Origin: Pseudomonadales bacterium
Lineage (GTDB): Bacteria > Pseudomonadota > Gammaproteobacteria > Pseudomonadales > DSM-25080
Assembly: GCA_040119265.1 (NCBI GenBank)
Contig: JBEDTZ010000011.1
Span: 86,587-110,586, forward strand
Reading direction: 5' to 3'
DNA length: 24,000 nt
A program made the translations under genes and the position numbers. Numbering within the stretch: the stretch's first letter is position 1; the number at the start of each line of letters is the position of its first letter. Shown here in pieces: positions 3,332-22,939 of this stretch. The notes below the pieces were generated by a model, which was given only the letters and a program-made list of their open reading frames with translations, was not told where the DNA came from and did not search any database.

Positions 3332-3979
3332 ATGATTTCAGCTAACCTGTCACCTCAGCTTCTTCCCAGTGAACATCTAGACGCTGTTGCCACCCTGTGT
3401 CCGTGCATACGCTACACAAAAGGTGAGGTCATCCACGCGCGGAACGACGAAAAGCCGGGCTTCTCAATTATCACTCGAGGGAACGTGAAGGTGGGTAACT
3501 ATGACACGCAGGGCAACTACCTGTTAACTCAGGTTTTAGGGGAGCTAGAGATTTTCGGCGAAATCACCCTGTTCACCCATTACGCCCGAAGTCATACGGT
3601 TGAGGCGCTTTCGGATTGTGAGATTATTCAAGTTAGCCGTGAAAACTATGAGCGCTACGCCGTTCAATCACCCTCTATTAAAGATGTGATGCTAAGCATG
3701 CTGGCGGAGAAGTTACGCACCTGTGTGGATTTAATGGATGACCTACGCCATCTCACGGTTACTCAGCGCCTTGCCAAATTGCTGCTAAATTTCGCCGCGG
3801 CCAAAGATGCCTCACATGTGAAACTGCGCCAAAGTGATCTGGCCGATCATCTAGGCCTGACGGTACTTACTGTTCACCGAGCGCTAAAGCGACTGGCCAG
3901 TGAAGGGCTCATCGAGCTGAAATATGGTGGTATAGAAGTCGTCAATGCCTCAGAACTAGCGCGCTTTGCGCAGCGCTAG
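3332..3979 (+). CDS. Crp/Fnr-family transcriptional regulator
   Basis: 215 aa. The N-terminal half resembles a cNMP-binding beta-roll (GEVIHARNDEKPGFSIITRGNVKV...FGEITLF). The C-terminal HTH is RQSDLADHLGLTVLTVHRALKRLASEGLI. It is divergent from the hydroxylase gene. Confidence 0.8.
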   Translation: MISANLSPQLLPSEHLDAVATLCPCIRYTKGEVIHARNDEKPGFSIITRGNVKVGNYDTQGNYLLTQVLGELEIFGEITLFTHYARSHTVEALSDCEIIQVSRENYERYAVQSPSIKDVMLSMLAEKLRTCVDLMDDLRHLTVTQRLAKLLLNFAAAKDASHVKLRQSDLADHLGLTVLTVHRALKRLASEGLIELKYGGIEVVNASELARFAQR

Positions 3980-4072
3980 TGCCGAGTCATTCGCAGAGAT
4001 CAACCGTAGCATAAGCGCGTTACACATCAGCTCTTAACCCTTACGGTTTCTAGTTCTTAAAGTTTACAGCCG

Positions 4073-5173
4073 CTAGCTATTAAACTGGTAGAGACTAACT
4101 TGGCTATTCACCTGCCCCTCAAGGCGAACTGAACATTCCCCCCACGTACTTGGAATGGTAAAAGCGCCCTGCCCCTGATAGTCGTAGCGTTTGTATTTGC
4201 CACTACAGCGAAGTTCGAAAGCTGATATCTCACCAGACTCAACCGCAAACTCAAAGACCGGACGGGAAAGTCGATAAGACCATGTTCCTCGTTCACTGAG
4301 GTCACCCTTAGCGATAAGGTACTCCTGTTCAGCGAGTCGCAATTCAAGGGTATCTGCGAGTTCAAGCAACGAACTTAGCCCCTCCTCGTTCCTCAACTCC
4401 CCGGGAATTTTCTCCGCAAGCTCCGCGGCATCAAGATACTGTTGGCTATCCAGCATAATTGCGAACGCTCGCTGAAATAGGATAGTTGTGTTCTCCACGC
4501 TCAATCGGTCTGGCCCCCAATCGTTTGCTCCCCAACTGATTGCCCGCTTATATTCCGAAAGCGCCGAAATACTATCGCCTTGCTGCTCGAAATTAAGGCC
4601 ACTCAGCAGTCGATAGTTCGCTTCCTCATAGAAATTAGTGAGCTCCATTTCTTCAAGCTGGCTAACGAACTCCGAAAAGGCGTCGAAATTTTCCGCTTTA
4701 TAGGCTTCAACCGCGTCGTTACTGATGCTCACAAAACGCGACGACCCGCCCTGAGATGAATCCCCAAACATAAAGGTGAACATATTACTATTGTCACAGG
4801 ATTCAATAGGCTCCCCGTTGAGCATCGCCGGCTCATACTTTCGCTTTAATGCCGCTTTAAGTGCTTCGCGTTCGAAATAGGAGCTACCACTGGAATCCTC
4901 GATCACAGCATGAGCCACGTTGCCCTCGGTATCGATGACATAACTCACTGTCGCCCAGCCTTCCCGGCCTCGGCGCAGCTCCCTACGTGGGTACTGGGGT
5001 GCTACAGGACGAAGGATTTGCGGTTCAATAAATTCGCTGACCGAGCGCGCGACCTCAACGGGTGCCAACGTGTCCTGAGACGCCTCAACAGCGGGTACAG
5101 TTTGACTCGAAGAGGTTCCATCGACATTACCGGGAGCCGCCACAGCGGCTGCCATCACAAGTGTTGCAAGCAT
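4073..5173 (-). CDS. TonB C-terminal-domain protein with a long helical-repeat (TPR-like) C-terminal extension
   Basis: 366 aa with a hydrophobic N-terminus (MLATLVMAAAVAAPG). The TonB_C signature PQYPRRELRRGREGWATVSYVIDTEGNVAHAVIEDSSGSSYFEREALKAALKRKYEP sits near the N-terminus and is followed by about 240 aa. AAGGA SD precedes the ATG. Confidence 0.7.
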   Translation of the reverse strand: MLATLVMAAAVAAPGNVDGTSSSQTVPAVEASQDTLAPVEVARSVSEFIEPQILRPVAPQYPRRELRRGREGWATVSYVIDTEGNVAHAVIEDSSGSSYFEREALKAALKRKYEPAMLNGEPIESCDNSNMFTFMFGDSSQGGSSRFVSISNDAVEAYKAENFDAFSEFVSQLEEMELTNFYEEANYRLLSGLNFEQQGDSISALSEYKRAISWGANDWGPDRLSVENTTILFQRAFAIMLDSQQYLDAAELAEKIPGELRNEEGLSSLLELADTLELRLAEQEYLIAKGDLSERGTWSYRLSRPVFEFAVESGEISAFELRCSGKYKRYDYQGQGAFTIPSTWGECSVRLEGQVNSQVSLYQFNS

Positions 5174-5280
5174 GTTAAAAGTCCTTTTTATCTACTCTCG
5201 CCCTATCTGACGAGTATTTAGTTAGCCCTAAATATTATCAAGTACCCAATCCGAGGAACAGGCGCGAATGTTGTCGAATC

Positions 5281-6744
5281 TCACAGTCCGCTAGACTGAA
5301 TTAGATGCAGCTGTGTCTGCCGACCCGATAGAAACTCAATGTCTTTACCGTCAAAAAACGCATCCTCTTCCAACATAATACGGATGACCTGGCCGTCCCA
5401 CTCGGGTATTTCAGCACTCACATTAAGCTCAATGGAATAGGCGGTATTGGGATAGATTGGATAATCCCCGGCTATCGGCACCCCACCCTGAGAATCCCAC
5501 ATGCCAATCGTAGGGCCTGCAGCGTGACCATGCAGCCCAAGTGGATGAGTGTAAATGCTAGGCACTAAGCCCTCAGCCTTGGCAGTCGCCAACGAGGATG
5601 CCAAGAGTTCATTACCCGTCACCCCCACCGCAAAGCCAGACATCAGAATATCCTGTAAACGATTGCCCTGCGCCAGGGCATTTTGCAGGCCTACTGGTGC
5701 GGACTGTTCGCCTTCCTTCAGCACATAGGCGTGCTGTTGCTGATCGGTATTAAGGCGCAGATACACTACGCCGAAGTCTACGTGCAACAGATCGCCGGGC
5801 TGTACCACATTCTCTGCAACGCCATTACTAAAGGTTTCGATCTGGTCGAATTCGGCACCATCGTTACGCTGAAGCGACACGGATGGATGAAACCAATTGC
5901 CTAGATTAAGTGCCCCCGATTGCTCGCGTAACCACCAGGCAATATCGTCGGTAGTGGTTACCCCGGGCGTAACCACTGCATTCGAAAAGGCCGTGGCAAT
6001 GAGTTCATGACCTAAGCCCACCAGCGATTGAAAGATCTCGACTTCACTGGCACTGCGGGTCTCTAACCACCCCAAGGCTAGTGGCTGTGCCGAGACAAGC
6101 TTGTCGCGCTGAGTGGGCGTTAACGCCTGACTAAACTGTTCGTATTCACTGGCACTCATTCCGTCTGCCAGCGCGAAGTGAGCATCCTTGTTAATCCCAA
6201 TGGCGCGGGGATTCTTACTGGTAATAACGGCGGCTAAAGCGGCCCACTGATCAGGCTGCTCTTCCTTGTTCCACGCTTGCTCGAATATATTACCTACGCC
6301 ATAACGAGACACCGCCAATGCTTCAATCGCGGCGCCATTGCCGGGGTTATACACCACCAACATAGTGTGCCTTCTGGCCGACATCCAATCGGATGGCAAC
6401 AGAGTTTTCAGCACCGGATCCTCATTGTACTCGCGCGACATAATGACCCACAGATCAATCCCTGCTCGCTCCATCACTACCGGCATGACAGTCGCAAAGC
6501 GCTCAGCTAACACCGCATCAATGATCTCCGCACGTTCGCGCAAGGTAGGTAACTGTTCAACGGTGAACGCCATGGGGGCTGTGGCGCGATGGGAGCTCGT
6601 CACTTCAGTCTGAGCCAAAACGGTTGCAGTACTCACACTGGATACCAACAGAGCCGCGGCCAACAACGTTGAAGTAGCGCGTTGTACCGAAGCAATTAAC
6701 GGCCTTGCAGCTGCTACTAACGAAGGAGATAACATTACTTTCAT
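5281..6744 (-). CDS. M24-family metallopeptidase (Xaa-Pro aminopeptidase-like), probably periplasmic
   Basis: The C-terminal pita-bread fold blocks are present: DFGVVY...THPLGLHGHAAGPTIG...SIELN...MLEED (metal-ligand D/H/E pattern). The N-terminus MKVMLSPSLVAAARPL...ATVLAQTE resembles a signal peptide. The start is uncertain: the track gives 6786, and I prefer the ATG at 6744. Confidence 0.75.
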   Translation of the reverse strand: MKVMLSPSLVAAARPLIASVQRATSTLLAAALLVSSVSTATVLAQTEVTSSHRATAPMAFTVEQLPTLRERAEIIDAVLAERFATVMPVVMERAGIDLWVIMSREYNEDPVLKTLLPSDWMSARRHTMLVVYNPGNGAAIEALAVSRYGVGNIFEQAWNKEEQPDQWAALAAVITSKNPRAIGINKDAHFALADGMSASEYEQFSQALTPTQRDKLVSAQPLALGWLETRSASEVEIFQSLVGLGHELIATAFSNAVVTPGVTTTDDIAWWLREQSGALNLGNWFHPSVSLQRNDGAEFDQIETFSNGVAENVVQPGDLLHVDFGVVYLRLNTDQQQHAYVLKEGEQSAPVGLQNALAQGNRLQDILMSGFAVGVTGNELLASSLATAKAEGLVPSIYTHPLGLHGHAAGPTIGMWDSQGGVPIAGDYPIYPNTAYSIELNVSAEIPEWDGQVIRIMLEEDAFFDGKDIEFLSGRQTQLHLIQSSGL

Positions 6745-8167: not shown

Positions 8168-11023
8168 ATGAAAAACCTCTTTGTAGGCCTGATAACAGCC
8201 GTCATGGTTACGGCTTGCTCACCAGCGGACCAGCAGAGCAGTGATACCAGTAATCAAGCGGGCACGGATTTCTCGCTGGATTACGAGTACTACCAGCTTG
8301 ATAACGGCTTGAACGTCATTTTGCACCGCGATGACTCGGATCCTATTGTGGCCGCTGCGACCATTATTCATGTAGGTTCATCACGTGAAGAAACCGGTAG
8401 AACTGGCTTCGCGCATCTGTTTGAGCATATGGCATTTAATGATTCCGAAAACGTGCCGCGCGGTGCTAACCGCCAAATGATTGAAGAGCTAGGTGGCTCC
8501 CGTAATGGTGGCACCTGGAGTGACGGCATCATTTACTACGAAGTGGTCCCCAAGGACGCCATTGAAAAGCTAATGTGGATTGATTCCGATCGCTTTGGCT
8601 ACATGATCAACACCGTTACCGAATCGGCGCTAGAGCGCGAGAAACAGGTAGTTAAAAACGAGAAGCGCCAGCGTGTAGACAACCAACCCTATGGTCACAC
8701 CGGCGCCATAATTCGCCGTGCACTCTACCCCGCAGGCCACCCCTATTCTTGGACAGTCATTGGTGAACTTGAAGACTTACAGGCGGCGACCTTAGCCGAT
8801 GTTCGCGAGTTCTACGATCGCTACTATGGTCCATCTAATGCCACCTTGGTGATTGCGGGTGATATTGATATTGAGGAAACCAAAGCACTGGTCGAAACCT
8901 GGTTTGGTGAAATTCCTGCCGGTCAGGATATCAGTGACTTGGCCCCAATGCCGGTAAATCTAGATGAGTCTATCCGTCTTTCGCACCTTGATAATTTCGC
9001 CCGGCTGCCGGAGCTGCGTATCACCATCCCAACGGTGGAGGAATACCATCCGGACAGCTATGCACTGGAAGCCTTGGCTCAGTTGTTAGCCGATGGCAAG
9101 CGCGCCCCACTCTATCGCCATGTAGTAGAAGAAGACGCCTTAGCACCGGGTGTTCGAGCCAGTCAAAATAGCAGTGAGCTAGCTGGTGAGTTCTCGATAG
9201 CGGTTCGTGGTAACGCCGGCGTTGCCCTAGATGATGTTAGCGCCTCCATTGATCGCGCTCTGGCGGACTTCGAGCAAAACGGTTTTGATGACCGCGATCT
9301 TGAGCGTATTAAAGCGGGCTTAGAAACCTCATTCTACCAAGGTGTTTCATCGGTATTAAACAAAGCCTTCCAGTTGGCAACCTATGCGGAATACGCCGGT
9401 GACCCGGGTTACTTCCAGACAGACATCCAGCGTATTCAAGCGGTCACGCGTGAAGACGTGCTGCGCGTTTATAACACCTATGTGAAAGACGCCAATGCCA
9501 TTTACACCAGCGTGGTGCCGAAGGCAGCGCCGGAGCTAGTACTTGCTGGTTCAGTAGATGCCGGCATTGTCGAAGAAGCCATTGTGGCCGGCGCGGAGCC
9601 GACCTTCGATGACAGCGAAGCGGACTACGAACGAACCGTTACCGTGCATGACCGCAGCGAACCACCGCTGGGCCCAATGCCGGAGATTAAAACCCCAGTA
9701 GTGAGTGATAACCTTGCCGATAACGGTGTGCGTTTACTCAACATTGAGTCCAACGAGCTACCACTATTCAACTTCGAACTCTACATCCCGGGCGGTGTCT
9801 GGCTAGAGAATGACAGCGACTATGGCGTCAACGCCCTCACCGCAAGTTTGATGAACGAGGGTACCGCCATGCGGACTCCGGCAGAACTGGAAGACGATAT
9901 CGGTCTGCTAGGTTCGTCGTTGAGTATCAATTCGTCCATGGACGGCATCATCCTTCGCGGCAGCGGCTTAGCCCGCAACTTCGAAGACACCTTGGCGATT
10001 GCGGCGGAAATGCTGCAATCACCGCGCTTTGAGCAAGCGGACTTTGACCGCCTAAAGCAGCAAACGCTAACGCGCATTCAAGCGAGTGAAACCTCGCCCA
10101 TGAGCATCGCGTCACGCGCTGCCTTTGCGACCCTATACCCCGCTGACTTCCGTGCGGCCTCACCAACCGTGGGCACCTCGGAAACTGTTAGCAATCTTGA
10201 ACTGGCTGACGTACAGGCTTTCTACCAACAGGCGATTCGCCCGAACAACGCAGCCTTTAGTGTTGCGGGCGCCCTCGATAGCGAGCGTGTGCAACGTGCC
10301 TTTAACAGCCAATTTGGTAGCTGGACTGCCGCGGCAGACACTAGCGATCAAAGCAACGCGCAAAACGAAGCTCCGGTCGCGGCGGCAACCGAACTCCCTA
10401 ACTGGGTATTCGTAGATCTGCCCGATGCTAAGCAATCGGTGCTGTTCATGGCTGCTCAGGGACCATCGTCCTACTCCACGGATGAATACGATTTGGATGT
10501 AGCTATTAACCGCCTAGGCGGTGGTAGTAGTGCACAGTTGTTCCAAACCCTACGTATTCAATTAGGCTATACCTACGGTGCGTATGCCACGGTCTATGGC
10601 GGGCGCTACAACGGCCCGGCTTTGGCCTATAGCAGTGTTCGCGCCAATGTCACCTCAGAGGCTATGGAAGTTTTCCAAGGGTTGATTGAAGGCTATGACG
10701 CTCAGTTTAGCGAAGCCGATTTAGCGACTACGCAGAACATTCTGATTAAATCACAGACTCGTGCCTATGAAAGCTTAGGGCAGAAAACTGGGATGCTATC
10801 GGAGATGGCTCGCTACAACCGCACTAGCGATTATGTGTCGGCACGTCAGAACCGTGTTGCCAACATGAGCACTGACCGTGTGAGTGAACTGCTAAACCAG
10901 TACCTACCACAGGACAAACTGCTGTATGTGATTGTGGGTGATAAAGCCACTCAGTACGATACGCTGGTTGAACAGCTGGGTGAACCACGTGAGCTTGACC
11001 GATGGGGACAGCCGGTGGAGTAA
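8168..11023 (+). CDS. M16-family (pitrilysin/insulinase) zinc peptidase, tandem double-unit, predicted lipoprotein
   Basis: The inverted zinc motif HLFEH occurs in GFAHLFEHMAF, with the downstream E in EREKQVVKNE. The ~950 aa length fits two M16 active/inactive domain pairs. The ATG at 8168 (AAGGGA SD 7 nt upstream) gives MKNLFVGLITAVMVTAC, a lipobox-like signal. The track start at 8141 is TTG. Confidence 0.85.
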   Translation: MKNLFVGLITAVMVTACSPADQQSSDTSNQAGTDFSLDYEYYQLDNGLNVILHRDDSDPIVAAATIIHVGSSREETGRTGFAHLFEHMAFNDSENVPRGANRQMIEELGGSRNGGTWSDGIIYYEVVPKDAIEKLMWIDSDRFGYMINTVTESALEREKQVVKNEKRQRVDNQPYGHTGAIIRRALYPAGHPYSWTVIGELEDLQAATLADVREFYDRYYGPSNATLVIAGDIDIEETKALVETWFGEIPAGQDISDLAPMPVNLDESIRLSHLDNFARLPELRITIPTVEEYHPDSYALEALAQLLADGKRAPLYRHVVEEDALAPGVRASQNSSELAGEFSIAVRGNAGVALDDVSASIDRALADFEQNGFDDRDLERIKAGLETSFYQGVSSVLNKAFQLATYAEYAGDPGYFQTDIQRIQAVTREDVLRVYNTYVKDANAIYTSVVPKAAPELVLAGSVDAGIVEEAIVAGAEPTFDDSEADYERTVTVHDRSEPPLGPMPEIKTPVVSDNLADNGVRLLNIESNELPLFNFELYIPGGVWLENDSDYGVNALTASLMNEGTAMRTPAELEDDIGLLGSSLSINSSMDGIILRGSGLARNFEDTLAIAAEMLQSPRFEQADFDRLKQQTLTRIQASETSPMSIASRAAFATLYPADFRAASPTVGTSETVSNLELADVQAFYQQAIRPNNAAFSVAGALDSERVQRAFNSQFGSWTAAADTSDQSNAQNEAPVAAATELPNWVFVDLPDAKQSVLFMAAQGPSSYSTDEYDLDVAINRLGGGSSAQLFQTLRIQLGYTYGAYATVYGGRYNGPALAYSSVRANVTSEAMEVFQGLIEGYDAQFSEADLATTQNILIKSQTRAYESLGQKTGMLSEMARYNRTSDYVSARQNRVANMSTDRVSELLNQYLPQDKLLYVIVGDKATQYDTLVEQLGEPRELDRWGQPVE

Positions 11024-11075: not shown

Positions 11076-11105
11076 CAAAATGCCCTCTTAGCGAGGGCAT
11101 TTTTG
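11076..11105 (+). terminator. Bidirectional rho-independent terminator after the M16 peptidase gene; also the first part of the left direct repeat
   Basis: The sequence is AAAA-ATGCCCTC-ttagc-GAGGGCAT-TTTT: an 8-bp GC-rich stem flanked by an A-tract and a T-tract, beginning 53 nt after the stop codon. Confidence 0.8.
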
Positions 11106-11196
11106 CAACTCCTTTTTGAGTCAACCCAGACTGTCTTCGCCACCTTGGGGGGACTATGAAGACTGTCTGTGCCGCCGTTGTTAAATGATGCAGCGC
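11078..11196. repeat. Left copy of the island-flanking direct repeat
   Basis: Manual alignment to 18313-18449 gives about 105 identical positions out of 119. Shared blocks include AAATGCCCTCTTAGCGAGGGCATTTTT, AACTCCTTTTTG, GACTGTCTTCGCCA, CTTGGGGGGACTATGAAGACTGTC and GCCGCCG. Confidence 0.85.
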
Positions 11197-11228
11197 TGCA
11201 ACAAAACATTTTCTGACGACTAAACACT

Positions 11229-11291
11229 TTGAGACGGTTGAGACGGTTGAGACGGTTGAGACGGTTGAGACGGTTGAGACGGTTGAGACGG
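11229..11291. repeat. Perfect tandem repeat (TTGAGACGG) x7, 9-bp unit
   Basis: Read directly from the sequence: seven identical head-to-tail 9-mers. The repeat is intergenic, 33 nt inside the left direct repeat. The 91-aa minus ORF across it (RLNRLNRLN...) is an artefact of the repeat. Confidence 0.95.
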
Positions 11292-11443: not shown

Positions 11444-11531
11444 TTTTGTTTGCTTTTGATTTAGTTTTTTGATTTTTGATAAGTTAGTTTTTTATAGGTA
11501 ACAAGAGTTTAAATCTTTAATAGGAGGAGAG

Positions 11532-11657
11532 ATGTTAGTAACAAATCAAGACCATTTTACCTCTACTCCTTCCCCTTGTAGCTGGTTCAGATGGTTTACA
11601 GCTGATCCTCTTATTAAAGACTCTGTTAAATCCAGCGTTATCACTCCTTCTCTCTAA
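11532..11657 (+). CDS. Candidate tna operon leader peptide (41 codons, TnaC-like by position and W-F-x-x-D motif)
   Basis: The strong SD TAGGAGGAGAG is immediately upstream of the ATG. Translation: MLVTNQDHFTSTPSPCSWFRWFTADPLIKDSVKSSVITPSL*. It lies between the CRP box and tnaA, 122 nt upstream of the tnaA ATG. W21-F-T-A-D25 parallels E. coli TnaC W12-F-N-I-D16. It is too short to appear in the ORF track. Confidence 0.5.
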   Translation: MLVTNQDHFTSTPSPCSWFRWFTADPLIKDSVKSSVITPSL

Positions 11658-11779
11658 CTCCATTCTTAATTGAATTTGGATTTGGAGGCCAGTTGCCGCA
11701 ATTCCCATACTAAAACTACTCGCGTCTTCTGGCCATTTTGAACCTGTGAATAATGGTCCGCCAATAGTGGCGTGCTTGG

Positions 11780-13189
11780 ATGCTTATTATGAAAAATTTA
11801 CCCCAGCCCTATAAAATCAAGTCAATAGAACCCATTCAGCTACTCTCTTTCGAGCAACGCTTCAATGCGTTAGCTAAAGTTGGCTTTAATCCCTTTTTGC
11901 TACGTAGTGATGATGTCTACATCGATCTTCTTACGGATTCTGGCACCGGAGCCATGAGCCAAGAGCAATGGTCTGCCCTAATGCTGGGAGACGAGTCCTA
12001 TGCAGGCAGTCGGAGCTACTACAAGCTAGAGCAAGCTGTGCATTACATATTCAATTATCAATACACCATACCTACCCATCAGGGCAGAGGCGCTGAACAG
12101 ATCCTGTTTCCTGCTCTTATCAACAAGATGAGAAATGAGAAAGGCGGCGACAAGGCTGTATTCATCTCTAACTACCACTTTGACACTACGGCGGCGCATG
12201 TTGAGCTAAACGATGCCAAAGCGATCAATGTAGTATGCGAACAAGCTCATCAGCTTAGTGATCCCTATGATTGGAAGGGAAATTTCGATATCCCTTTGCT
12301 ACTAAAAACTATTAATACCCAAGGTCCTGAAAATATTGCTGCCATCATCATCACGATTACCTGCAATAGTATGGGTGGGCAGCCTGTTTCCATGGAGAAC
12401 ATGAGGTCCGTTTATGAAATTGCACGCGAGTTTGACATCCCGGTGGTGATGGACGCCGCGCGTTTCGCGGAAAATGCTTTCTTCATTCGTCAACGAGATC
12501 CGTTCTACCAAACGACTAGCATCGATGAAATCGTCTACCATATGTTTGAGTATGCCGATATCTTTACCATGTCCGCTAAAAAGGATGCGATGGTCAATAT
12601 TGGTGGACTTTGTTGTTTCAAAGATAACGAAGCATTGTATCGTGAAGTTCAAACCCTTTGCATCCCTATGGAGGGCTTCGCCACCTATGGCGGACTAGCT
12701 GGGCGCGATATGGAAGCGCTGGCAGTAGGTTTGTATGAATCTATCAATTTGGAGTATCTCACTGCTCGTATTGAGCAGGTAGAGCGATTAAATAATAAGC
12801 TCGCAGAGGCGGGCATCCCCGTTCAGACTCCTAGCGGCGGTCATGCGGTATTTATCGACGCCAAAGCACTCCTTCCTGACATCCCTGCTGATCAGTTCCC
12901 TGGCCATGCCTTGGCCATTGCTTTGTACCTTGAAGCAGGAATTAGATCGGCTGAAATCGGCTCACTCCTTCTAGGGAGAGACCCTCAAACGGGGATCCAA
13001 AAGACCTCTCCAACGGAGCTTTTGCGGCTAGCAATTCCTCGACGTACCTATACTAATGAGCACATTGATTATGTCGCCGAAAGCGTCATTAAAGTTGCGC
13101 AGCGTAAACAGGAAATTCCTGGCTATAGATTTACCTACGAGCCTCAAGTCTTACGTCACTTTCTCGCCGAGTTTGAAGCAGTCGCTTAA
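11780..13189 (+). CDS. tnaA: Tryptophanase (tryptophan indole-lyase), PLP-dependent beta-eliminating lyase
   Basis: Colinear from recall with E. coli TnaA along its whole length: [77 protein letters not shown]-lysine block [21 protein letters not shown] and YEPQVLRHF. These blocks fit TnaA better than tyrosine phenol-lyase (GNMYFTTT, MSGKKDCLV). The start could instead be the ATG at 11789. Confidence 0.92.
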
Positions 13190-13272
13190 TTAATCCGAAG
13201 TAACAACAGTCACGCTAAAAATTTCAATAACAGAGCGTGACTGTTAATCAATTAATACTGCAAGGAGTTTCT

Positions 13273-14547
13273 ATGAAAGATTCAAATCTCAGCAAGCCTG
13301 ACAAGGCCGCTTCGATAATCTATGGAGCAGCTGTAATCTTCAGTACCGCCGTGGGCGTGGGGATGATGAGCCTTCCTATTGTAAGCGTGGGAATGTGGTT
13401 TAGCCTGAGTGTGGTCGTTATTATCCTGACAGCATTCTATGTTATTTCTGCTGGTAGCTTGATACTTGAAGTGAGCATGCGCTACCCCCAAGATACCGGC
13501 ATTCATACTATGGTAGATAGCCTACTTGGAAAGCGACACGCTTTCTGCAATGCATCGGTAATGCTGTTTAATGGTTATATTCTTCTTTATGCCTACCTAA
13601 CAGCGGGCAGTGAAGCCATACAATTTTACGTTGAAAAAGCCACTGAGCAGCCCCTTGGCTCAACCGCCTCAGGACTTCTATTTGCCCTAATTTTTAGCTT
13701 TATCCTCTTTCTGCGTCCACTCTCCATAAGTCGCTTTCTGAGTATCTTCATCACACTGATGATCCTGTCATTTATTTATGTTGCCTATTCGTTAGCGATA
13801 AAGATTGACCTAGAGAATTTAGTTGCTTCACAGCAGGGCCTAATTCGTCAATTTTCACTCGCACCCTATGCCGTCGTCGCCTTGCCATTTTTTGCTGCCG
13901 CATTGGGGTACCAACAAACAATTCCAATGCTAAGAAATCTCTACAACAACGATGCCACCAAGGTATTTAAAGCAATTATTTTAGGAGTCTGTGGCGTAGC
14001 CACACTGTATCTCTGTTGGCTGACCCTGACGATGGGAAATCAAACTCAAACTGAGATGATTACAAAGCTATCCTCAGGCAACAATCGCATCGAGGATTTA
14101 GTTTCAACACTAAGTCACAGTGTTGAACTCAAGGCATTAATGTTCCTCTTTGTTCAATTAGCTGTTGTCACCTCGTTTATCGGCGTAGCAAAGGGGGTTC
14201 TTGATTACCTCACCGATATTTTTGTCAATCATCTACAGCTCTCGTCAAAATATGCCAAAGTTTTGGTAATTCTGCCTCCCCTAACGATGTCGCTGTTATT
14301 CCCTTACGGCTTCCTTCTTGGAATCGGCTTCGCCGGTTTAACAGGCGCGATTTGGGGCGGCCTTTATCCGTCATTACTAGCACTAAAGATCGAACAAAAG
14401 CCACCGCTTAGAGGTATGAGCTTTAAAACCCCAGGCGGCAGATTTACCCCGTGGTTCACGCTGCTATTCAGCCTTGTGATTGTCGCAGCTATCTTACTTA
14501 GCCTCTTCGATTTACTACCGCAATATCCCGCTATAGAGGAGCAATAA
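13273..14547 (+). CDS. tnaB: Aromatic amino acid (tryptophan) permease, TnaB/Mtr/TyrP (HAAAP) family
   Basis: About 11 TM segments. Recalled similarity to E. coli TnaB includes GAAVIFSTAVGVGMMSLP, LLYAYLTAG, LAVVTSFIGVAKGVLDYLTDIF and FPYGFLLGIGFAGL. It lies directly downstream of tnaA. The ATG at 13273 follows an AAGGAG SD; the track start at 13237 is GTG. Confidence 0.85.
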   Translation: MKDSNLSKPDKAASIIYGAAVIFSTAVGVGMMSLPIVSVGMWFSLSVVVIILTAFYVISAGSLILEVSMRYPQDTGIHTMVDSLLGKRHAFCNASVMLFNGYILLYAYLTAGSEAIQFYVEKATEQPLGSTASGLLFALIFSFILFLRPLSISRFLSIFITLMILSFIYVAYSLAIKIDLENLVASQQGLIRQFSLAPYAVVALPFFAAALGYQQTIPMLRNLYNNDATKVFKAIILGVCGVATLYLCWLTLTMGNQTQTEMITKLSSGNNRIEDLVSTLSHSVELKALMFLFVQLAVVTSFIGVAKGVLDYLTDIFVNHLQLSSKYAKVLVILPPLTMSLLFPYGFLLGIGFAGLTGAIWGGLYPSLLALKIEQKPPLRGMSFKTPGGRFTPWFTLLFSLVIVAAILLSLFDLLPQYPAIEEQ

Positions 14548-14549
14548 CG

Positions 14550-15905
14550 ATGTTATTAAGCCAAACGCTTACCCTAGCTATAACAGCTTTACCTATCAAC
14601 CCTGACTGCCGCCTCTACTGCACACAAGAAGAGAACGAGTCATCAAACTATCTCTCAAGCTTAGTGAAAATAGACAGCGAAGCGAGCACCTTCCAAACCC
14701 CATCACGGGAGTTCCAGCTAGCTCTAAAATCTAGCTTGGACCAGGACGTCTGCCGAAGCTTAGCGAGGAACTTAGCAACCTGTAGCAAGTACCAGCTCGC
14801 TGGAGCAGCTCCCAAGAACACCGAGTTTTCAGCAAGTACTGGCTATCAATCAGAAATTACAGAAACTGGTCTTGGCTGGCAATCTGCACAAATTGACTAC
14901 TTTAGCTATACCACGGTCGCTAGCAATACTCGCTCTGGATCGAGTGATTTTTCGTCAGGAGGGATTGCAAGGTTCTACAGCGATTACCTCATTACCGACG
15001 ACGTTAAATCACGAGAGCAGATTCGCTTCAAGGTAGAGCATCGAAACAGCTATACATCAACGAGCCCTCTCAGCTTTGTACTAACTGATATCGGCGCGGT
15101 TGGACTCATTGAGCCTCAGTTCAATGACGGAGGATTTCGTCTTACTCATTTGTACTGGGAAAAAGCTTGGAATCAAAACCGTAGTAACTTGTCCTTCGGT
15201 TTTCTAGACCCTACCAACTACGTTGACACTTACCAGTTAGGTAACCCCTGGGAAGGATTTAATAATTTTATCTTCAGTACTGGTTCAGGAACCATGACCT
15301 TGCCTGACGAGAGTACTTTTGGAGTTTCTTTAAAGCAGCTATTTTACGACAACTATTACGCTATAGCGAGTATCTCAGATGCCAATGCTGACTCCACCGA
15401 TCCATTCAGTGGCCTATTCGACGGCGGACGCGTTTTTTGGTCTATCGAAGTAGGATTGATTGAATCACCGGAAAAATTTTACACCCGCAATCTCCACTTA
15501 AGCTATTGGCGGATGGATGCAGGGACTCGCCACGGAAGTGAAGTTAGCAAAGGGGTCAATGTCTCATGGGTACATCAGTTGCAAGATTGGATGCCATTTT
15601 TCCGAGCAGGCTTAAGTTCAGGCGATGCCAGCCTCCTATCCTCCAATGTAACTATAGGCTCGGGCTATCTCGGATTCTCAGACCCAAGCTCTCTACTTGG
15701 TGTGGCCTTAGGTTGGGGTAAGCCTAATGAGTCCCTGTTCGGAGCACAGCAAGAGCATCAGTTTACAACTGAGGTCTTTTATAGAACCGAACTGTTCAAC
15801 CACTTGACGCTTACGCCCAATATCCAATACCTAAAGTCGCTACCCCTCAATCCTGAACATAACGAGTCATGGGTAGCGGGGCTGCGCCTAAAATTTGCCT
15901 TTTAG
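14550..15905 (+). CDS. Outer-membrane beta-barrel porin, OprB (carbohydrate-selective porin)-like
   Basis: It starts 2 nt after the tnaB stop, with a GAGGAG SD 8 nt upstream. The sequence alternates amphipathic and aromatic-rich stretches. The C-terminal block FTTEVFYRTELFNHLTLTPNIQYLKSLPLNPEHNESWVAGLRLKFAF resembles the OprB-family terminus (E..Y......P..QY...P......G.R....F) and ends in Phe. The N-terminus MLLSQTLTLAITALPINPDC is not a canonical signal peptide. Confidence 0.55.
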   Translation: MLLSQTLTLAITALPINPDCRLYCTQEENESSNYLSSLVKIDSEASTFQTPSREFQLALKSSLDQDVCRSLARNLATCSKYQLAGAAPKNTEFSASTGYQSEITETGLGWQSAQIDYFSYTTVASNTRSGSSDFSSGGIARFYSDYLITDDVKSREQIRFKVEHRNSYTSTSPLSFVLTDIGAVGLIEPQFNDGGFRLTHLYWEKAWNQNRSNLSFGFLDPTNYVDTYQLGNPWEGFNNFIFSTGSGTMTLPDESTFGVSLKQLFYDNYYAIASISDANADSTDPFSGLFDGGRVFWSIEVGLIESPEKFYTRNLHLSYWRMDAGTRHGSEVSKGVNVSWVHQLQDWMPFFRAGLSSGDASLLSSNVTIGSGYLGFSDPSSLLGVALGWGKPNESLFGAQQEHQFTTEVFYRTELFNHLTLTPNIQYLKSLPLNPEHNESWVAGLRLKFAF

Positions 15906-15925: not shown

Positions 15926-15966
15926 CGCTACTACTGAGCCTACGCAAGCGGTTATTCAGAGTAGCG
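15926..15966 (+). other. Intercistronic stem-loop between the porin gene and the ibrA-like gene
   Basis: CGCTACTACTGA (15926-15937) pairs with TCAGAGTAGCG (15956-15966) with a one-base bulge. There is no T-tract, so it is not a clear intrinsic terminator. It may be a processing or stability element, or a weak boundary. Confidence 0.3.
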
Positions 15967-16020
15967 GAGGGAGATACTCCACGCGGGGCAAATCGAATAA
16001 ACACTGAGGGATCTGGTCTA

Positions 16021-17238
16021 ATGAAGAGGCACTTAACTATAGACGTTGAGCAAGCGGCTAGGGAACGAATTCGAATTCTATTTGATGAATTCGAGAGTAT
16101 CTACGTATCTTTCTCCGGAGGGAAGGACTCAGGTGTTCTGCTCAACCTAGTCATTGAAGAAGCACGCAAGCGTGACAGGCTCCCCGTGGACGTACTCATT
16201 ATTGATCTTGAAGCGCAGTTTGAACATACCATAGCCTACATTTTAGAGATGGTTAATCGGCCTGATATAAATGCTTTTTGGGTTTGCCTACCTCTAAGCC
16301 TGCGCAATGCAGTATCACAATTTCAGGTGAAATGGTTCTGTTGGGATCCATCAGCAATAGATGGATGGGTACGATCAAAACCCCGCCATCCTTCAGTTAT
16401 CGACAATCCTTCCAGCTTTCCCTTTTTCTACTTTGGAATGGAATTTGAAACCTTTGTTGCTGAATTCGGCAAATGGTATAGCGCGAAACGTGGCGTTCCA
16501 TCTGTGTGTCTAGTCGGTATTCGTGCAGATGAGTCGATAAATCGATACAACGCTATTAAACATCCCTCAAAGAGCAAATTACACCAACACGGCTGGACGA
16601 CCAAAGAATGCGAAAATTTCTATAAAGCCTATCCCATCTATGACTGGCATGTGACCGACATCTGGATTGCTAACGGTCGCTTCAAATGGTCTTACAACCG
16701 CATCTACGACTTAATGCACCAGGCAGGTCTAACACTTTCTCAACAGCGAGTTTGTCAGCCTTTTGGCGACGATCAACGCAAGGGTTTGTGGCTCTATCAA
16801 ATTCTGGAAGCATCAACCTGGCAGAAGCTGGTATCTAGGGTTGCTGGCGCCAACTTCGGTAGTCGATATAGCAAAAACCAAAGCCATATTTTAGGCCACT
16901 ATCGCTTTGATCTACCGGAGGGGCATACCTACCGTTCCTATAGCAAATACCTACTTGAGAGCATGCCGCCACACTTGGCGCAGCACTATCGAAAACGAAT
17001 ATTTAAGTTTCTAAATTGGTGGCGCAAGAACGGTAGAAAGAATGGCTTTACTCGGATTCCTGACTTTGCGGAGAGGAAATTAGAAGCGAAGAAAAAAGCT
17101 CCTAGTTGGCGACGAATCTGTAAGGTTCTCATCAAAAACGACTACTGGTGTAAAGGTTTGTCGTTTAGCCAAACCAAGCGACTCACCACTCATTACCTTG
17201 AGCTATATGAAAGCTACCTTCGGAGGGAAAAGCTATGA
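16021..17238 (+). CDS. ibrA: IbrA-like PP-loop ATP pyrophosphatase (PAPS reductase family N-domain plus a large C-terminal domain of unknown function)
   Basis: The PP-loop motif is SFSGGKDSGVLLNL near the N-terminus. Overall length (~405 aa) and the Trp/Lys/Arg-rich C-terminal half (NWWRKNGRKNGF...PSWRRICKVLIKNDYWCKGLSF) fit the IbrA/DUF3440-type family as I recall it. The ATG at 16021 is preferred over the track's upstream non-ATG start at 15895, which would overlap the porin gene. Confidence 0.75.
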   Translation: MKRHLTIDVEQAARERIRILFDEFESIYVSFSGGKDSGVLLNLVIEEARKRDRLPVDVLIIDLEAQFEHTIAYILEMVNRPDINAFWVCLPLSLRNAVSQFQVKWFCWDPSAIDGWVRSKPRHPSVIDNPSSFPFFYFGMEFETFVAEFGKWYSAKRGVPSVCLVGIRADESINRYNAIKHPSKSKLHQHGWTTKECENFYKAYPIYDWHVTDIWIANGRFKWSYNRIYDLMHQAGLTLSQQRVCQPFGDDQRKGLWLYQILEASTWQKLVSRVAGANFGSRYSKNQSHILGHYRFDLPEGHTYRSYSKYLLESMPPHLAQHYRKRIFKFLNWWRKNGRKNGFTRIPDFAERKLEAKKKAPSWRRICKVLIKNDYWCKGLSFSQTKRLTTHYLELYESYLRREKL

Positions 17239-17861
17239 CACTCAAAAGTGAAATTGTTGATTTATCTGGAAAGCTGTTGCATTCGTCACCAGAATTATCC
17301 TTAAAGGATCGAGTAGAAATTTTCAATCTGCTCTCCGTCTTGGCGGCTAGTATCGTGGAGTTTAAACACCCAGCGCTTAACGTCCAACTAGTTCGCACAA
17401 ACACCTTAGAAGATAACGATTACAACCCAAACGTTGTCTCCCCACCAGAATATCGTCTACTTACCCACTCAATCAGGGAGGACGGGATCACAATGCCGCT
17501 TGTGGTTGCAAAAAGCCAAGGACAAAAGCCCTATGTAGTAGTTGATGGCTACCACCGAGCACAAATTATTAAGTTTGATAAGGAGGTGAATAAATCCCTT
17601 GCCGACCACATACCGGTAGTTATTTTAGCTAAGCCGTTAGACAAGCGAATATCTTCTTCGGTTAGACACAACATGGCTAGAGGTTCACACCAAGTCAAAC
17701 TCACTGCAAAACTGATCCTTCGCCTAAAGGAGCTGAATTGGACGAACGATGAAATAGGCAAAGAACTTGGAATGGACAGCGATGAAGTCCTGAGAATGCA
17801 ACAGATCACTGGGCTTGCTGAAGCCTTTAAAAATGACGATTTTTCCACAGCGTGGGACTAA
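17235..17861 (+). CDS. ibrB: IbrB-like ParB/Srx-fold (ParB N-terminal nuclease-like) protein with C-terminal HTH
   Basis: The ParB-N pattern is YNPNVVSPPEYRLLTHSIREDGITMPLVV...YVVVDGYHRAQII (DGxHR box). The C-terminal HTH-like segment is WTNDEIGKELGMDSDEVLRMQQI. An ATGA overlap with ibrA and a GGAGGGA SD indicate translational coupling. Confidence 0.8.
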   Translation: MTLKSEIVDLSGKLLHSSPELSLKDRVEIFNLLSVLAASIVEFKHPALNVQLVRTNTLEDNDYNPNVVSPPEYRLLTHSIREDGITMPLVVAKSQGQKPYVVVDGYHRAQIIKFDKEVNKSLADHIPVVILAKPLDKRISSSVRHNMARGSHQVKLTAKLILRLKELNWTNDEIGKELGMDSDEVLRMQQITGLAEAFKNDDFSTAWD

Positions 17862-17879
17862 CTTTAGACGGAGAAAATA

Positions 17880-18236
17880 ATGAATATTTCTAGACATTAC
17901 ACTAGTGAAAGAATGAGTAAAATTGTAGTGTACAACAACTTGATTTATCTGTGTGGTCAAGTAGCGAGTGACGCCACGTCTGGGATCGCCGTACAAACAG
18001 AGAGCATGTTAGGCAAGGTAGATGATCTTCTAGAAGAGGCTAACAGTGATAAATACCATATCCTTAGCGCCACGGTTTATCTCAGCGACATGGATAATTT
18101 TAATGTTATGAACGAAGTCTGGGAGTGGTGGCTGCCGTTAGGGCACGCACCTGCCAGAGCTTGCGTTCAAGCACCCATGGCGCGCCCCGAACTGTTAGTA
18201 GAAGTTTCCGTCATTGCGGCGGTTAAAGAAAGCTAG
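17880..18236 (+). CDS. RidA/YjgF/YER057c-family protein (YoaB-like subgroup)
   Basis: 118 aa. [13 protein letters not shown]...[60 protein letters not shown] is colinear with my recollection of E. coli YoaB (..IHNNTLYYTG...ILDATIFLADKNDFAAMNKAWDAWV.AGHAPVRCTVQA......KVEIKIVAAV). A GGAG SD lies 6 nt upstream, and the gene starts 18 nt after ibrB. Confidence 0.85.
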
Positions 18237-18312: not shown

Positions 18313-18340
18313 AAATGCCCTCTTAGCGAGGGCATTTTTA
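18313..18340 (+). terminator. Bidirectional terminator hairpin (right-repeat copy), serving the island operon and the convergent DJ-1-like gene
   Basis: ATGCCCTC-ttagc-GAGGGCAT followed by TTTTTA. The stem-loop is identical to the one at 11080-11100. Confidence 0.75.
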
Positions 18341-18449
18341 TAACTCCTTTTTGTTTTTTTGGGGAGGAGCGGCCCCGACTGTCTTCGCCATCTTGGGGGG
18401 ACTATGAAGACTGTCCTGTCTATGCCGCCGCTGTTGAATGGTGAAGCGC
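18313..18449. repeat. Right copy of the island-flanking direct repeat
   Basis: It aligns to 11078-11196. An extra ~13 bp block (TTTTTTTGGGGAGGAGCGG, 19 bp) replaces AGTCAA (6 bp) of the left copy. The copy ends 2 nt before the stop codon (18452) of the convergent DJ-1-like gene. Confidence 0.85.
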
Positions 18450-18451
18450 GA

Positions 18452-22349: not shown

Positions 22350-22748
22350 CTAACTGGCCGCTACAGATTTCAAACCCAAATATTTAACAAACGGTTCGAA
22401 ATCTCGGTCAGTAAAGAGTAATGGAATACCCTCGTTTATACAGTAGGACGCGATGACGATGTCATTCGTCTTGCGTACCGTAATACCTTTAGTCCGAAGA
22501 AAACGGAAATGCTCGGAAGCTCTAAGAGCCTGAAGCGTACCCAGCATTTCATGTTGCTCGAGAACCAATAGGTTAGCTTTCGCCAATTTATAGTCGTAGC
22601 TCTTTCGAAAACCTTGGAGTATCTCCAATAGTATTAAGTCTCCCATCAAAACCACATCGTCGTTCAGAGCCTCATCGAGCATCTCAGTTTCTAGAGAGTG
22701 AATACCATTGAGATAGTCAATCCACACACTGGAATCTGCCAGTATCAT
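22350..22748 (-). CDS. vapC: VapC-family PIN-domain toxin (type II TA)
   Basis: 132 aa. The N-terminal MILADSSVWIDYL carries the first PIN acidic residue, followed by the later conserved E (LLEILQG) and D (TDRDFEPF). An ATGA overlap links it to the upstream antitoxin gene. Confidence 0.85.
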   Translation of the reverse strand: MILADSSVWIDYLNGIHSLETEMLDEALNDDVVLMGDLILLEILQGFRKSYDYKLAKANLLVLEQHEMLGTLQALRASEHFRFLRTKGITVRKTNDIVIASYCINEGIPLLFTDRDFEPFVKYLGLKSVAAS

Positions 22749-22939
22749 GAGGCCCCGCGCATTTCATCGAGGTTACCCTCCCAGGTTAACTTTCCTCGAA
22801 GCTTACGAATGCTCTGTTGCTTTCGCTGCTGAACAATTAGTTTCAGCGCTTCTTCGACAACTTCTCGCTTAGTGCGCAGACCAGTGGCCTGCAGAGCGCT
22901 CAGCATTAAATCATCGTCAATCACTATGTTGGTACGCAT
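22745..22939 (-). CDS. vapB: VapB-family antitoxin (small DNA-binding protein)
   Basis: 64 aa. MRTNIVIDDDLMLSALQATGLRTKREVVEEALKLIV is the common VapB (DUF2191-type) N-terminus. It is translationally coupled to vapC. Confidence 0.8.
   Translation of the reverse strand: MRTNIVIDDDLMLSALQATGLRTKREVVEEALKLIVQQRKQQSIRKLRGKLTWEGNLDEMRGAS

Follow-up and report, generated by a model that had tools for sequence, protein, structure and literature searches.

The stretch analysed here comprises 24,000 nt of a metagenome-assembled Pseudomonadales genome (contig JBEDTZ010000011.1, positions 86,587 to 110,586; below, the window). Two overlapping genes within it encode a bona fide IbrA/IbrB pair (YbdN/YbdM; PHROG 2302/2159), which forms a self-contained and translationally coupled two-gene cassette. 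The cassette lies behind a tryptophanase (tna) operon on an imported island, and the linkage of ibrAB to tna genes recurs in several marine bacteria. Structure models place IbrA among the ATP-type PP-loop enzymes and IbrB among DNA-binding ParB proteins that act as nucleoside triphosphate (NTP) switches. Our leading, though tentative, reading is that an NTP-gated, DNA-binding IbrB directs an ATP-dependent modifying IbrA to DNA, and that the pair is co-expressed here with a tryptophan-induced operon. The family itself is known. New are the island with its direct repeats, the tna linkage in four other genomes, and the structural placement of IbrB and of an IbrA with a single invariant cysteine.

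The window encodes an obligate IbrA/IbrB pair

The two genes are:
16021-17238, plus strand: ibrA-like gene; PP-loop PAPS_reduct domain and basic DUF3440 domain; 405 aa
17235-17861, plus strand: ibrB-like gene; ParB-fold nucleotide-binding domain (NDYNPN, DGYHR, RHNMARGSHQ) and helix-turn-helix (HTH); 208 aa

They overlap by ATGA at 17235-17238, and GGAGGG is located 7 nt 5′ of the ibrB start. The three open reading frames (ORFs), the PP-loop, the VVDGYHR box, the ATGA overlap and the 18-nt gap to a following Rid-family gene (ridA) were all found where the first-pass annotation of this DNA had placed them. Its assignment of an IbrA/IbrB architecture was borne out by Pfam, by PHROG 2302 and 2159, by database names and by mapping to E. 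coli ybdN/ybdM. The IbrA-like product matched the Pfam families DUF3440 (E=1.1e-33) and PAPS_reduct (E=1.2e-13), with 117 and 51.8 bits over the respective cutoffs of 25 and 22.5 bits exceeded in both cases, as well as PHROG 2302 (E=1.1e-90). IbrB matched PHROG 2159 with E=6.8e-54 and reached 21.7 bits with Pfam ParB_N, under the cutoff of 26.3. Database relatives of IbrA are titled 'DUF3440 domain-containing protein', 'phosphoadenosine phosphosulfate reductase', 'Co-activator of prophage gene expression IbrA' or 'Immunoglobulin-binding regulator'; IbrB has more than 4,500 relatives, many of them titled 'IbrB-like domain-containing protein'. An exhaustive profile search (E<=1e-30) yielded 569 clusters at 50% identity for the IbrA family.

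The pairing of the two proteins goes far beyond chance and is obligate. IbrB adjoined IbrA, in either order, in all 17 other bacterial loci of a sample that was anchored on IbrA and chosen irrespective of tna genes, and in 62 of 80 viral loci. Where the ibrA-ibrB junction was checked, the genes overlapped or abutted (11/11).

Window IbrA is 43-46% identical to enterobacterial proteins. Compared with the Lelliottia pair (L007; loci are numbered in this form), the identity is 43% for IbrA and 39% for IbrB. The L007 DNA shares 64-67% identity with E. coli ybdN/ybdM as well as with additional 'IbrB-like' copies, and the pair maps onto ybdN/ybdM in 5,421 of 5,426 complete E. coli genomes. Up to five places per E. 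coli genome hold IbrAB-like DNA, O157:H7 island copies included. The bacterial settings vary: the genes are found beside an integrase (L009), alone in chromosomes or, in Photobacterium damselae, where a prophage tail module ends and ahead of a polyvalent protein. Edwardsiella ictaluri (L005) carries two diverged ibrA-ibrB pairs (4219-6034 and 11516-13338) no more than about 7 kb apart. E. coli O157:H7 (NZ_CP038328.1, L188) has an extra IbrA/IbrB copy followed by a PerC-family transcriptional regulator (8863-9132) and insertion sequence remnants, and this island also encodes the Cah autotransporter.

Reportedly, IbrA/IbrB activate prophage eib genes, a finding that Sandt, Hopper and Hill are said to have described in 2002 and that is the only phenotype known for the family. 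The eib activation is echoed in PMC8813620. For K-12, repression of ybdNM by YbdO/CitR has been described (PMC9068703). The annotation had stated that the pair has no assigned biochemistry, and this agrees with the searchable literature, where no enzymatic activity, substrate or structure of IbrA/IbrB or YbdN/YbdM was found.

IbrA is a PP-loop enzyme with a single invariant cysteine

The PP-loop SFSGGKDS of IbrA, with the canonical SGGKDS of ATP-pyrophosphatase members, occupies residues 30-37 (nt 16108-16131). Conservation was assessed in an alignment of 32 sequences that included phage and enterobacterial members. Invariant positions were S32, G34, K35, D36 and S37 of the PP-loop, D62/E64, R168/E171/S172/R175 and Y207-D208-W209. 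The sole invariant cysteine was C377, which lies within an NDxxC motif close to the C-terminus; C89, C107 and C245 are not kept in distant members. The structure model of IbrA has a predicted local distance difference test score (pLDDT) of 80 with a confident N-terminal domain. Over ~230 columns, residues ~10-235 of this model can be aligned with PAPS/APS reductases, FMN adenylyltransferase and CysD. Judged from the model, IbrA is an ATP-type PP-loop enzyme of the PAPS-reductase/FMN-adenylyltransferase/CysD fold. The C-terminal 170 aa, the DUF3440 half, have a pI of 10.2 with 34 Lys and Arg and six Trp residues, and no counterpart was found for this half when the model was compared with solved structures. 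The loop around C377 has a pLDDT below 50 and is predicted to be disordered or flexible. In this it resembles CysH, whose catalytic Cys is located on a mobile tail; the likeness is a lead only. When the PDB was searched by sequence with IbrA and IbrB, no close relative of known structure came up.

Several known identities were considered and rejected for IbrA. The equivalog models of CysH, CysD, DndC and TtcA in NCBIfam gave 15-30 bits, where the cutoffs are 154-1086. CysH scored 19.6 bits against 154 (NF002537) and the ECGLH motif is missing, which confirms the annotation in its view that the protein is not of the CysH type. CysD reached 28.7 bits against 195 and 22.3 against 396.6, and no CysN is encoded among the window genes. 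The score for TtcA was far under its cutoff. BrxP of BREX type 4 was matched in PADLOC with 20 bits over 36 residues, and there are no DUF4007, PglZ, BrxC or BrxL neighbours.

DndC was likewise rejected, with 22.2 bits against 290.4 (TIGR03183). This enzyme carries three iron-sulfur (Fe-S) cysteines and a Cys dyad (PMC10853773). Since only C377 is invariant and C89, C107 and C245 are lost, IbrA has no DndC-like Fe-S cysteine set. One invariant and probably mobile cysteine, together with a missing Fe-S site, argues against a Dnd-like sulfur insertion. The parallel to Dnd and BREX systems drawn by the annotation thus holds at the superfamily level, but it does not extend to Fe-S cysteines, partner genes or scores above cutoff. 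No ParA, DndD/E, cysteine desulfurase, PglZ or BrxC/L was found among the window genes, and DndD/E with DndA or IscS were found neither in the window nor in the 17 bacterial loci nor in the neighbour clusters of the viral loci.

IbrB groups with DNA-binding ParB proteins

The VVDGYHR box of IbrB corresponds to residues 102-108. In an alignment of 37 sequences that spans several phyla, the motifs equivalent to ParB boxes I-III (NDYNPN, DGxHR and RHNxARGxHQ) are near-invariant. Strictly invariant are N61, Y63-N66, D104, G105, R108, R144-N146, A148-G150 and Q153, and D62, H107 and H152 are conserved in at least 90%. In the AlphaFold2 model (pLDDT 81), two N-terminal helices (residues 3-41) precede a ParB-type nucleotide-binding domain, which is followed by an HTH. 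Among the PDB entries, the model is best matched by Noc, ParB-CDP/CTPgammaS, KorB and Spo0J, with E~1e-7 over 140-160 columns and both domains; for KorB the TM-score is 0.53. Srx, SerK and SbnI match with E~1e-3 and by the N-domain alone. SerK is also found as a weak match by NCBIfam (E=1.8e-4) and in the PDB. On this structural evidence, IbrB groups with the DNA-binding NTP-switch ParBs and not with the kinase branch of the fold. The protein ends after the HTH, at 208 aa, and is devoid of a C-terminal dimerisation domain. In agreement with the annotation, IbrB is not a chromosomal partition ParB: there is no ParA in the window, TIGR00180 gave 18.4 bits against 58.45, and the dimerisation domain is missing. 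Additionally, the ParB domain of IbrB aligns with the N-terminus of phage ParB-DNA-methyltransferase fusions (phrog_498; PADLOC MTase_II). A survey of the ParB-CTPase fold from 2025 describes orphan ParBs on mobile elements that bind CTP, ATP or GTP, and it does not mention IbrB (PMC12704722).

The likeness to KorB and Noc also speaks for another explanation, one we consider possible but doubtful. Here the pair would be a pure regulator that leaves no covalent mark. IbrB would be an NTP-dependent clamp like VirB, KorB or BisD that counters the silencing of, or activates, AT-rich acquired genes, its own tna operon included, and IbrA would serve as an ATP-consuming loader or cofactor maker. ParB-like activators that depend on CTP do exist, namely VirB (PMC10770331) and BisD (PMC12409273). 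Also in line with this explanation are the eib activation as the only family phenotype, which database names reflect as well, the GC content of the island ~7 points under that of the host, and the extra O157:H7 copy beside a PerC-family regulator. On the other hand, IbrA retains every catalytic PP-loop residue and the invariant cysteine across phyla and phages, which argues for chemistry beyond loading. Phages carry IbrAB in replication and recombination modules and not at the positions of regulatory switches, and no conserved binding site emerged from the upstream regions described below.

Phages carry IbrAB in replication modules

IbrAB was found in 224 phage records, and more than 538 matches to the family on viral contigs were confirmed. 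The usual site is the replication/recombination module. In Microcystis phage Mwe-JY13 the gene order is primase...ParB/Srx x2-IbrA-YqaJ-RecT, and in Streptococcus phage PYS40 it is helicase-IbrA-IbrB...HNH-Sak4-helicase-SSB-primase. The commonest neighbour in the 80 viral loci is a SNF2-type helicase directly upstream (18/80); DnaB-like helicases, NinG/Rap and HTH_3 proteins recur as well. Our data indicate that IbrAB is mainly a phage and prophage gene pair which has repeatedly been captured by bacterial chromosomes. Directly upstream of viral IbrA, two clusters of ~130-aa proteins were observed in 14 loci each (for example L157 3521-3928 and L173 2111-2503). They belong to no Pfam family, and one weakly matches phrog_26647 (function unknown). 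These proteins may be a third component in some phages.

These settings bear on a role in anti-phage defence or as a toxin-antitoxin-like conflict module, be it Dnd-like, similar to BREX type 4, or composed of a ParB antitoxin and a DUF3440 toxin. IbrA does have weak and fragmentary PADLOC matches to DndC (E=5e-6) and BrxP (E=4e-5), the pair occurs on islands and prophages, and a Listeria ParB/DUF3440 pair was called a toxin-antitoxin system by guilt by association in TASmania (PMC7020466). Nevertheless, we regard such a role as very improbable. The DndC score is far under its cutoff and the three Fe-S cysteines and Cys dyad of that enzyme are absent from IbrA. The window offers no DndD/E, PglZ, BrxC/L or nuclease partner, lytic as well as temperate phages carry IbrAB in replication modules, and the pair is near-core in E. 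coli. The conflict system considered by the annotation is therefore not indicated, given the phage replication modules and the near-core ybdNM.

The cassette is part of an imported tryptophanase island

The remaining features of the island and its boundaries are:
11078-11200, plus strand: left copy of a direct repeat, ~125 bp; opens with AAATGCCCTCTTAGCGAGGGCATTTTT, a hairpin that terminates the M16 peptidase gene upstream
11532-11657, plus strand: TnaC-like leader ORF, 41 aa, ...SWFRWFTADPLIKDS...; conserved core upstream of tnaA
11780-13189, plus strand: tnaA, tryptophanase; Beta_elim_lyase E=5.3e-82
13237-14547, plus strand: tryptophan/tyrosine permease (TnaB-like); Trp_Tyr_perm E=2.4e-78
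14550-15905, plus strand: OprB-family outer-membrane porin; domain match
17880-18236, plus strand: Rid-family (RidA-like) gene, 118 aa; Ribonuc_L-PSP E=9.6e-24, 84.1 bits against 27.3
18313-18450, plus strand: right copy of the direct repeat; hairpin 18313-18338; abuts the stop of a convergent DJ-1/PfpI gene

Leader, tnaA, permease, porin, ibrA, ibrB and ridA form one imported, low-GC island of 7.2 kb between two convergent host genes. A single import follows from the drop in GC content and in GC content at third codon positions (GC3), combined with the ~125-bp direct repeats at the boundaries. The GC content falls from 0.52-0.56 to ~0.45 between ~11.1 and ~18.3 kb. GC3 is 0.45-0.48 for tnaA, permease, porin, ibrA, ibrB and ridA, compared with 0.53-0.60 in the flanking genes. 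Two blocks of 41 and 43 nt are 95% identical between the left repeat copy and 18313-18415, and a 39-nt repeat core occurs exactly twice in the window where no occurrence is expected. Both copies open with the same terminator-like hairpin. These results substantiate the horizontal acquisition proposed in the annotation. Inside the island, no integrase or transposase was found. The arrangement suggests either that the target intergenic region was duplicated upon insertion or that a Campbell-type recombination took place.

Between the porin gene and ibrA, we found no terminator-like site or significant structure (fold z-score -0.84, no Rfam match). The hairpin at 18313-18338 is the only terminator-like structure that follows the genes from tnaA to ridA. 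Because a terminator is missing ahead of ibrA, it seems likely, as far as the sequence goes, that ibrAB is co-transcribed with the tna genes in the window.

The ridA gene starts 18 nt past the ibrB stop. It belongs to the island and is probably part of the transcription unit. Its product has the PARA motif with the Arg that is the catalytic active-site residue of RidA. A RidA homologue adjoins ibrAB in this genome only and in none of the 17 other bacterial loci (none is annotated in L189). RidA was therefore rejected as a third IbrAB component, and the annotation's inclusion of it in the module does not stand. It is better explained as an accessory of TnaA, a pyridoxal phosphate (PLP)-dependent lyase, than as a partner of IbrAB.

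Further observations were made in this region. A perfect 9-bp tandem array, TTGAGACGG x7, is located at 11229-11291, just inside the left boundary and upstream of the tna promoter region. It was rejected as an iteron for IbrB, as it is absent from all fetched loci except the contig L008 of the same genome. A loose TTATCnAnAGnnG...GGAGG stretch (loosely TTATCnAnAG...GGAGG) recurs 5′ of ibrA in the window (15955-15975) and in L099, L009, L185, L017 and L100. It abuts the start codon in most loci and lies ~50 nt upstream in the window; it might be what remains of a promoter or operator, or simply the ribosome-binding region. About 4 kb from the island, on the minus strand, a VapBC-type pair was found, which consists of a PIN-domain protein (22350-22748) and VapB just upstream (22350-22939 for the pair; annotation of an identical Logan contig).

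Linkage of ibrAB to tna genes recurs in marine bacteria

The annotation had called the tryptophanase neighbourhood unusual. We found the linkage again in other genomes, and ibrAB-tna linkage is recurrent in several marine bacteria. It is present in five genomes, namely the window, L099, L097, L017 and L186, with at least three arrangements beyond that of the window. In Photobacterium frigidiphilum (L099) the order is tnaA (77% identity)-permease-porin-Big_2-ibrA (72%)-ibrB. This block of 9.24 kb is located in a prophage, just upstream of the terminase, and is flanked by HNH-gene segments of ~730 bp (3619-4345 and 12856-13588) that are ~80-85% identical. Vibrio chaetopteri (L097) has tnaA (74%)-permease-ibrA (70%)-ibrB and no porin. 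In L017, which has the closest TnaA (77%), ibrA (62%) and ibrB (51%) stand upstream of leader-tnaA-permease-porin. In Vibrio tapetis (L186), a tnaA-like gene in two pieces (55-61%) and a gene for a methyl-accepting chemotaxis protein are followed further on by a ToxR-like gene, one other gene, ibrA (61%), ibrB and a Trp/Tyr permease. Pseudoalteromonas sp. DL-6 (L185) shares the ABC_tran-ibrA-ibrB backbone of L017, with a nearly identical IbrA, and lacks tna genes. Of these two Pseudoalteromonas-type loci, L017 alone has leader-tnaA-permease-porin immediately past ibrB; the tna block thus came or went next to an ibrAB that was already in place.

Two samples were used to judge the frequency of the linkage. 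In the IbrA-anchored sample, three of the 17 loci were clearly tna-linked and one more weakly (L002). By a rough estimate for a 4-Mb genome, a random gene lies less than 10 kb from tnaA in ~0.5% of cases. The tna-linked IbrAs fall into at least two subclades and are interleaved with unlinked ones in a neighbour-joining tree, which is not robust. The second sample was anchored on TnaA and comprised 80 metagenomic loci. It includes L017 and L018, the latter with a TnaA of 73% identity on a contig too short to show the presence of ibrAB. The other 78 loci have a TnaA of at most 65% identity, and none of them carries ibrAB (0/78). Window-type TnaA was not found on phages; the only matches were to giant-virus metagenome-assembled genomes, with at most 55% identity. 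The searchable literature holds no mention of ibrA together with tnaA.

Window TnaA is 73-77% identical to TnaA of L017, L099, L097 and L018. Upstream of tnaA, a TnaC-like leader with the core W-[FY]-T-x-D-P-x-I-K is present in all five loci of this TnaA clade. Outside the window the leader ORFs are:
L017, 4657-4776
L099, 4580-4684
L097, 6798-6920
L018, 3436-3573

E. coli TnaC carries KWFNID. The clade leader resembles it but has a longer and differently conserved tail. From the conserved leader core and by analogy with E. coli TnaC, tryptophan-inducible expression of the window tna operon is predicted. The OprB porin after tnaB is kept in L017 (7631-8740) and L099 (7604-8740), and in L018 a short N-terminal OprB match (33% over 75 aa, E=5.6e-4) begins where the contig runs out. 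Tryptophan or indole might cross the outer membrane through this porin.

The recurrent linkage raises the question of a common function. That IbrAB is functionally coupled to tryptophanase in a clade of marine Gammaproteobacteria, either as a tryptophan- or indole-gated DNA-marking or anti-silencing switch that is expressed from a TnaC-controlled operon or as a consumer of a TnaA product, seems unlikely to us. A purely metabolic partnership appears quite unlikely. The pair would then act in tryptophan, indole, serine or cysteine chemistry, for example as a SerK-like kinase with an adenylating enzyme, or by sulfur transfer from a cysteine desulfhydrase side activity of TnaA (compare DndA, DndC and DndB). 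Such a partnership would account for tnaA and a tryptophan permease beside ibrAB in five genomes and for the three clear cases and one weak case in the sample that was not selected for tna. Furthermore, SerK and SbnI, which are kinases of small molecules, belong to the ParB/Srx fold, and IbrB has weak SerK matches. However, in most members tna genes are missing from the neighbourhood (phages, E. coli ybdNM, L001, L009, L013, L098, L100, L185 and L189). IbrB has an HTH and matches DNA-binding ParBs ~10,000-fold better than SerK/Srx, the DUF3440 domain is strongly basic, and the Fe-S cysteine set for sulfur insertion is missing in IbrA. Co-regulation with tna is not universal, as the promoter and leader of the tna genes come after ibrAB in L017.

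Proposed mechanism and its significance

For the DNA-directed IbrAB that we favour, the following course can be envisaged. IbrB would bind DNA in an NTP-gated manner and would recruit or activate IbrA there, similar to the ParB-like partners of some phage DNA-modifying enzymes. IbrA, whose basic domain would bind nucleic acid, would use ATP to adenylylate a phosphate group or a base carbonyl of that nucleic acid, and Cys377 might complete the reaction. The resulting mark, or at any rate an activity bound to DNA, could protect or re-programme DNA, in phages during replication. On chromosomal islands it could relieve silencing or activate transcription, which would be consistent with the activation of eib genes. 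In the window, tryptophan would induce ibrAB along with the tna operon, of which it would form the tail, and RidA would quench aminoacrylate released by TnaA, thus serving TnaA and not IbrAB. A direct precedent is a phage thymine dioxygenase that needs a ParB-like activator on double-stranded DNA (2026; PMC13229309).

Several points weigh against this mechanism. In the dioxygenase precedent itself, mutations in the NTP pocket of the ParB protein did not abolish activation (PMC13229309), so NTP gating of IbrB is not guaranteed. The proposal draws entirely on domain logic and context. A generic role in DNA modification does not explain the recurrent tna linkage. The near-core ybdNM of E. coli is LysR-repressed and located beside citrate-lyase genes (PMC9068703), which may point to a physiological role in this species and not to one related to phages. 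No convincing conserved operator or parS-like site was found upstream of ibrA in 11 aligned regions. The C-terminal half of IbrA is modelled with moderate confidence only. Finally, none of nine long family members was an IbrA-IbrB fusion; one protein with ABC_tran and DUF3440 looks like a gene-call fusion of neighbouring genes.

IbrA and IbrB are among the most widespread protein pairs still devoid of any biochemistry. The structural placement of IbrB, the single invariant cysteine of an IbrA with no Fe-S site and the tna-linked subclade make an old question more testable. The tna-linked subclade predicts tryptophan-inducible expression and with it a natural induction condition under which a DNA mark or a regulatory effect can be sought. 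If true, the coupling to tna would be the first physiological handle on a pair that almost all E. coli and hundreds of phages carry. Should the pair install a new DNA modification, this would be of importance to work on phage-host conflict and epigenetics as well as to sequencing technology.

Comparison with known systems

CysH, CysD and FMN adenylyltransferase share the fold of IbrA residues ~10-235. IbrA differs by the additional basic domain of 170 aa and lacks the ECGLH tail and CysN. The combination of DndC and DndB (SspD/BrxP) is similar in that a PP-loop enzyme of the PAPS-reductase clan is joined by a DGxHR protein of the ParB superfamily. In contrast to DndC, IbrA is devoid of the three Fe-S cysteines and the Cys dyad, there are no DndA/D/E, Ssp or BREX partners, and DndC and BrxP models score 10- to 50-fold under their cutoffs. 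IbrB gives no DndB match and matches Noc, ParB and KorB instead.

The phage enzyme 5mYOX176 with ParB176 (PMC13229309) and the ParB-methyltransferase fusions resemble IbrAB in the pairing of a phage ParB-fold protein or domain with an enzyme that acts on DNA. IbrA is a PP-loop ATPase, whereas these enzymes are a dioxygenase or methyltransferases. IbrB keeps an HTH, whereas ParB176 has no obvious DNA-binding domain and keeps the C-terminal dimerisation domain. VirB, KorB and BisD share with IbrB the nucleotide-binding domain and HTH, the context of mobile elements and the gene-activation phenotype reported for the IbrAB family. Unlike them, IbrB lacks a C-terminal dimerisation domain and comes with an enzyme as its obligate partner.

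IbrA/IbrB of ECOR-9 and YbdN/YbdM of K-12 have the same two-domain IbrA, the same ParB-fold and HTH partner, the A-then-B overlap and the location on islands or prophages. The K-12 genes adjoin ybdO/citR and the citrate-lyase genes and are repressed by YbdO, whereas the pair in the window resides in a tryptophanase island.

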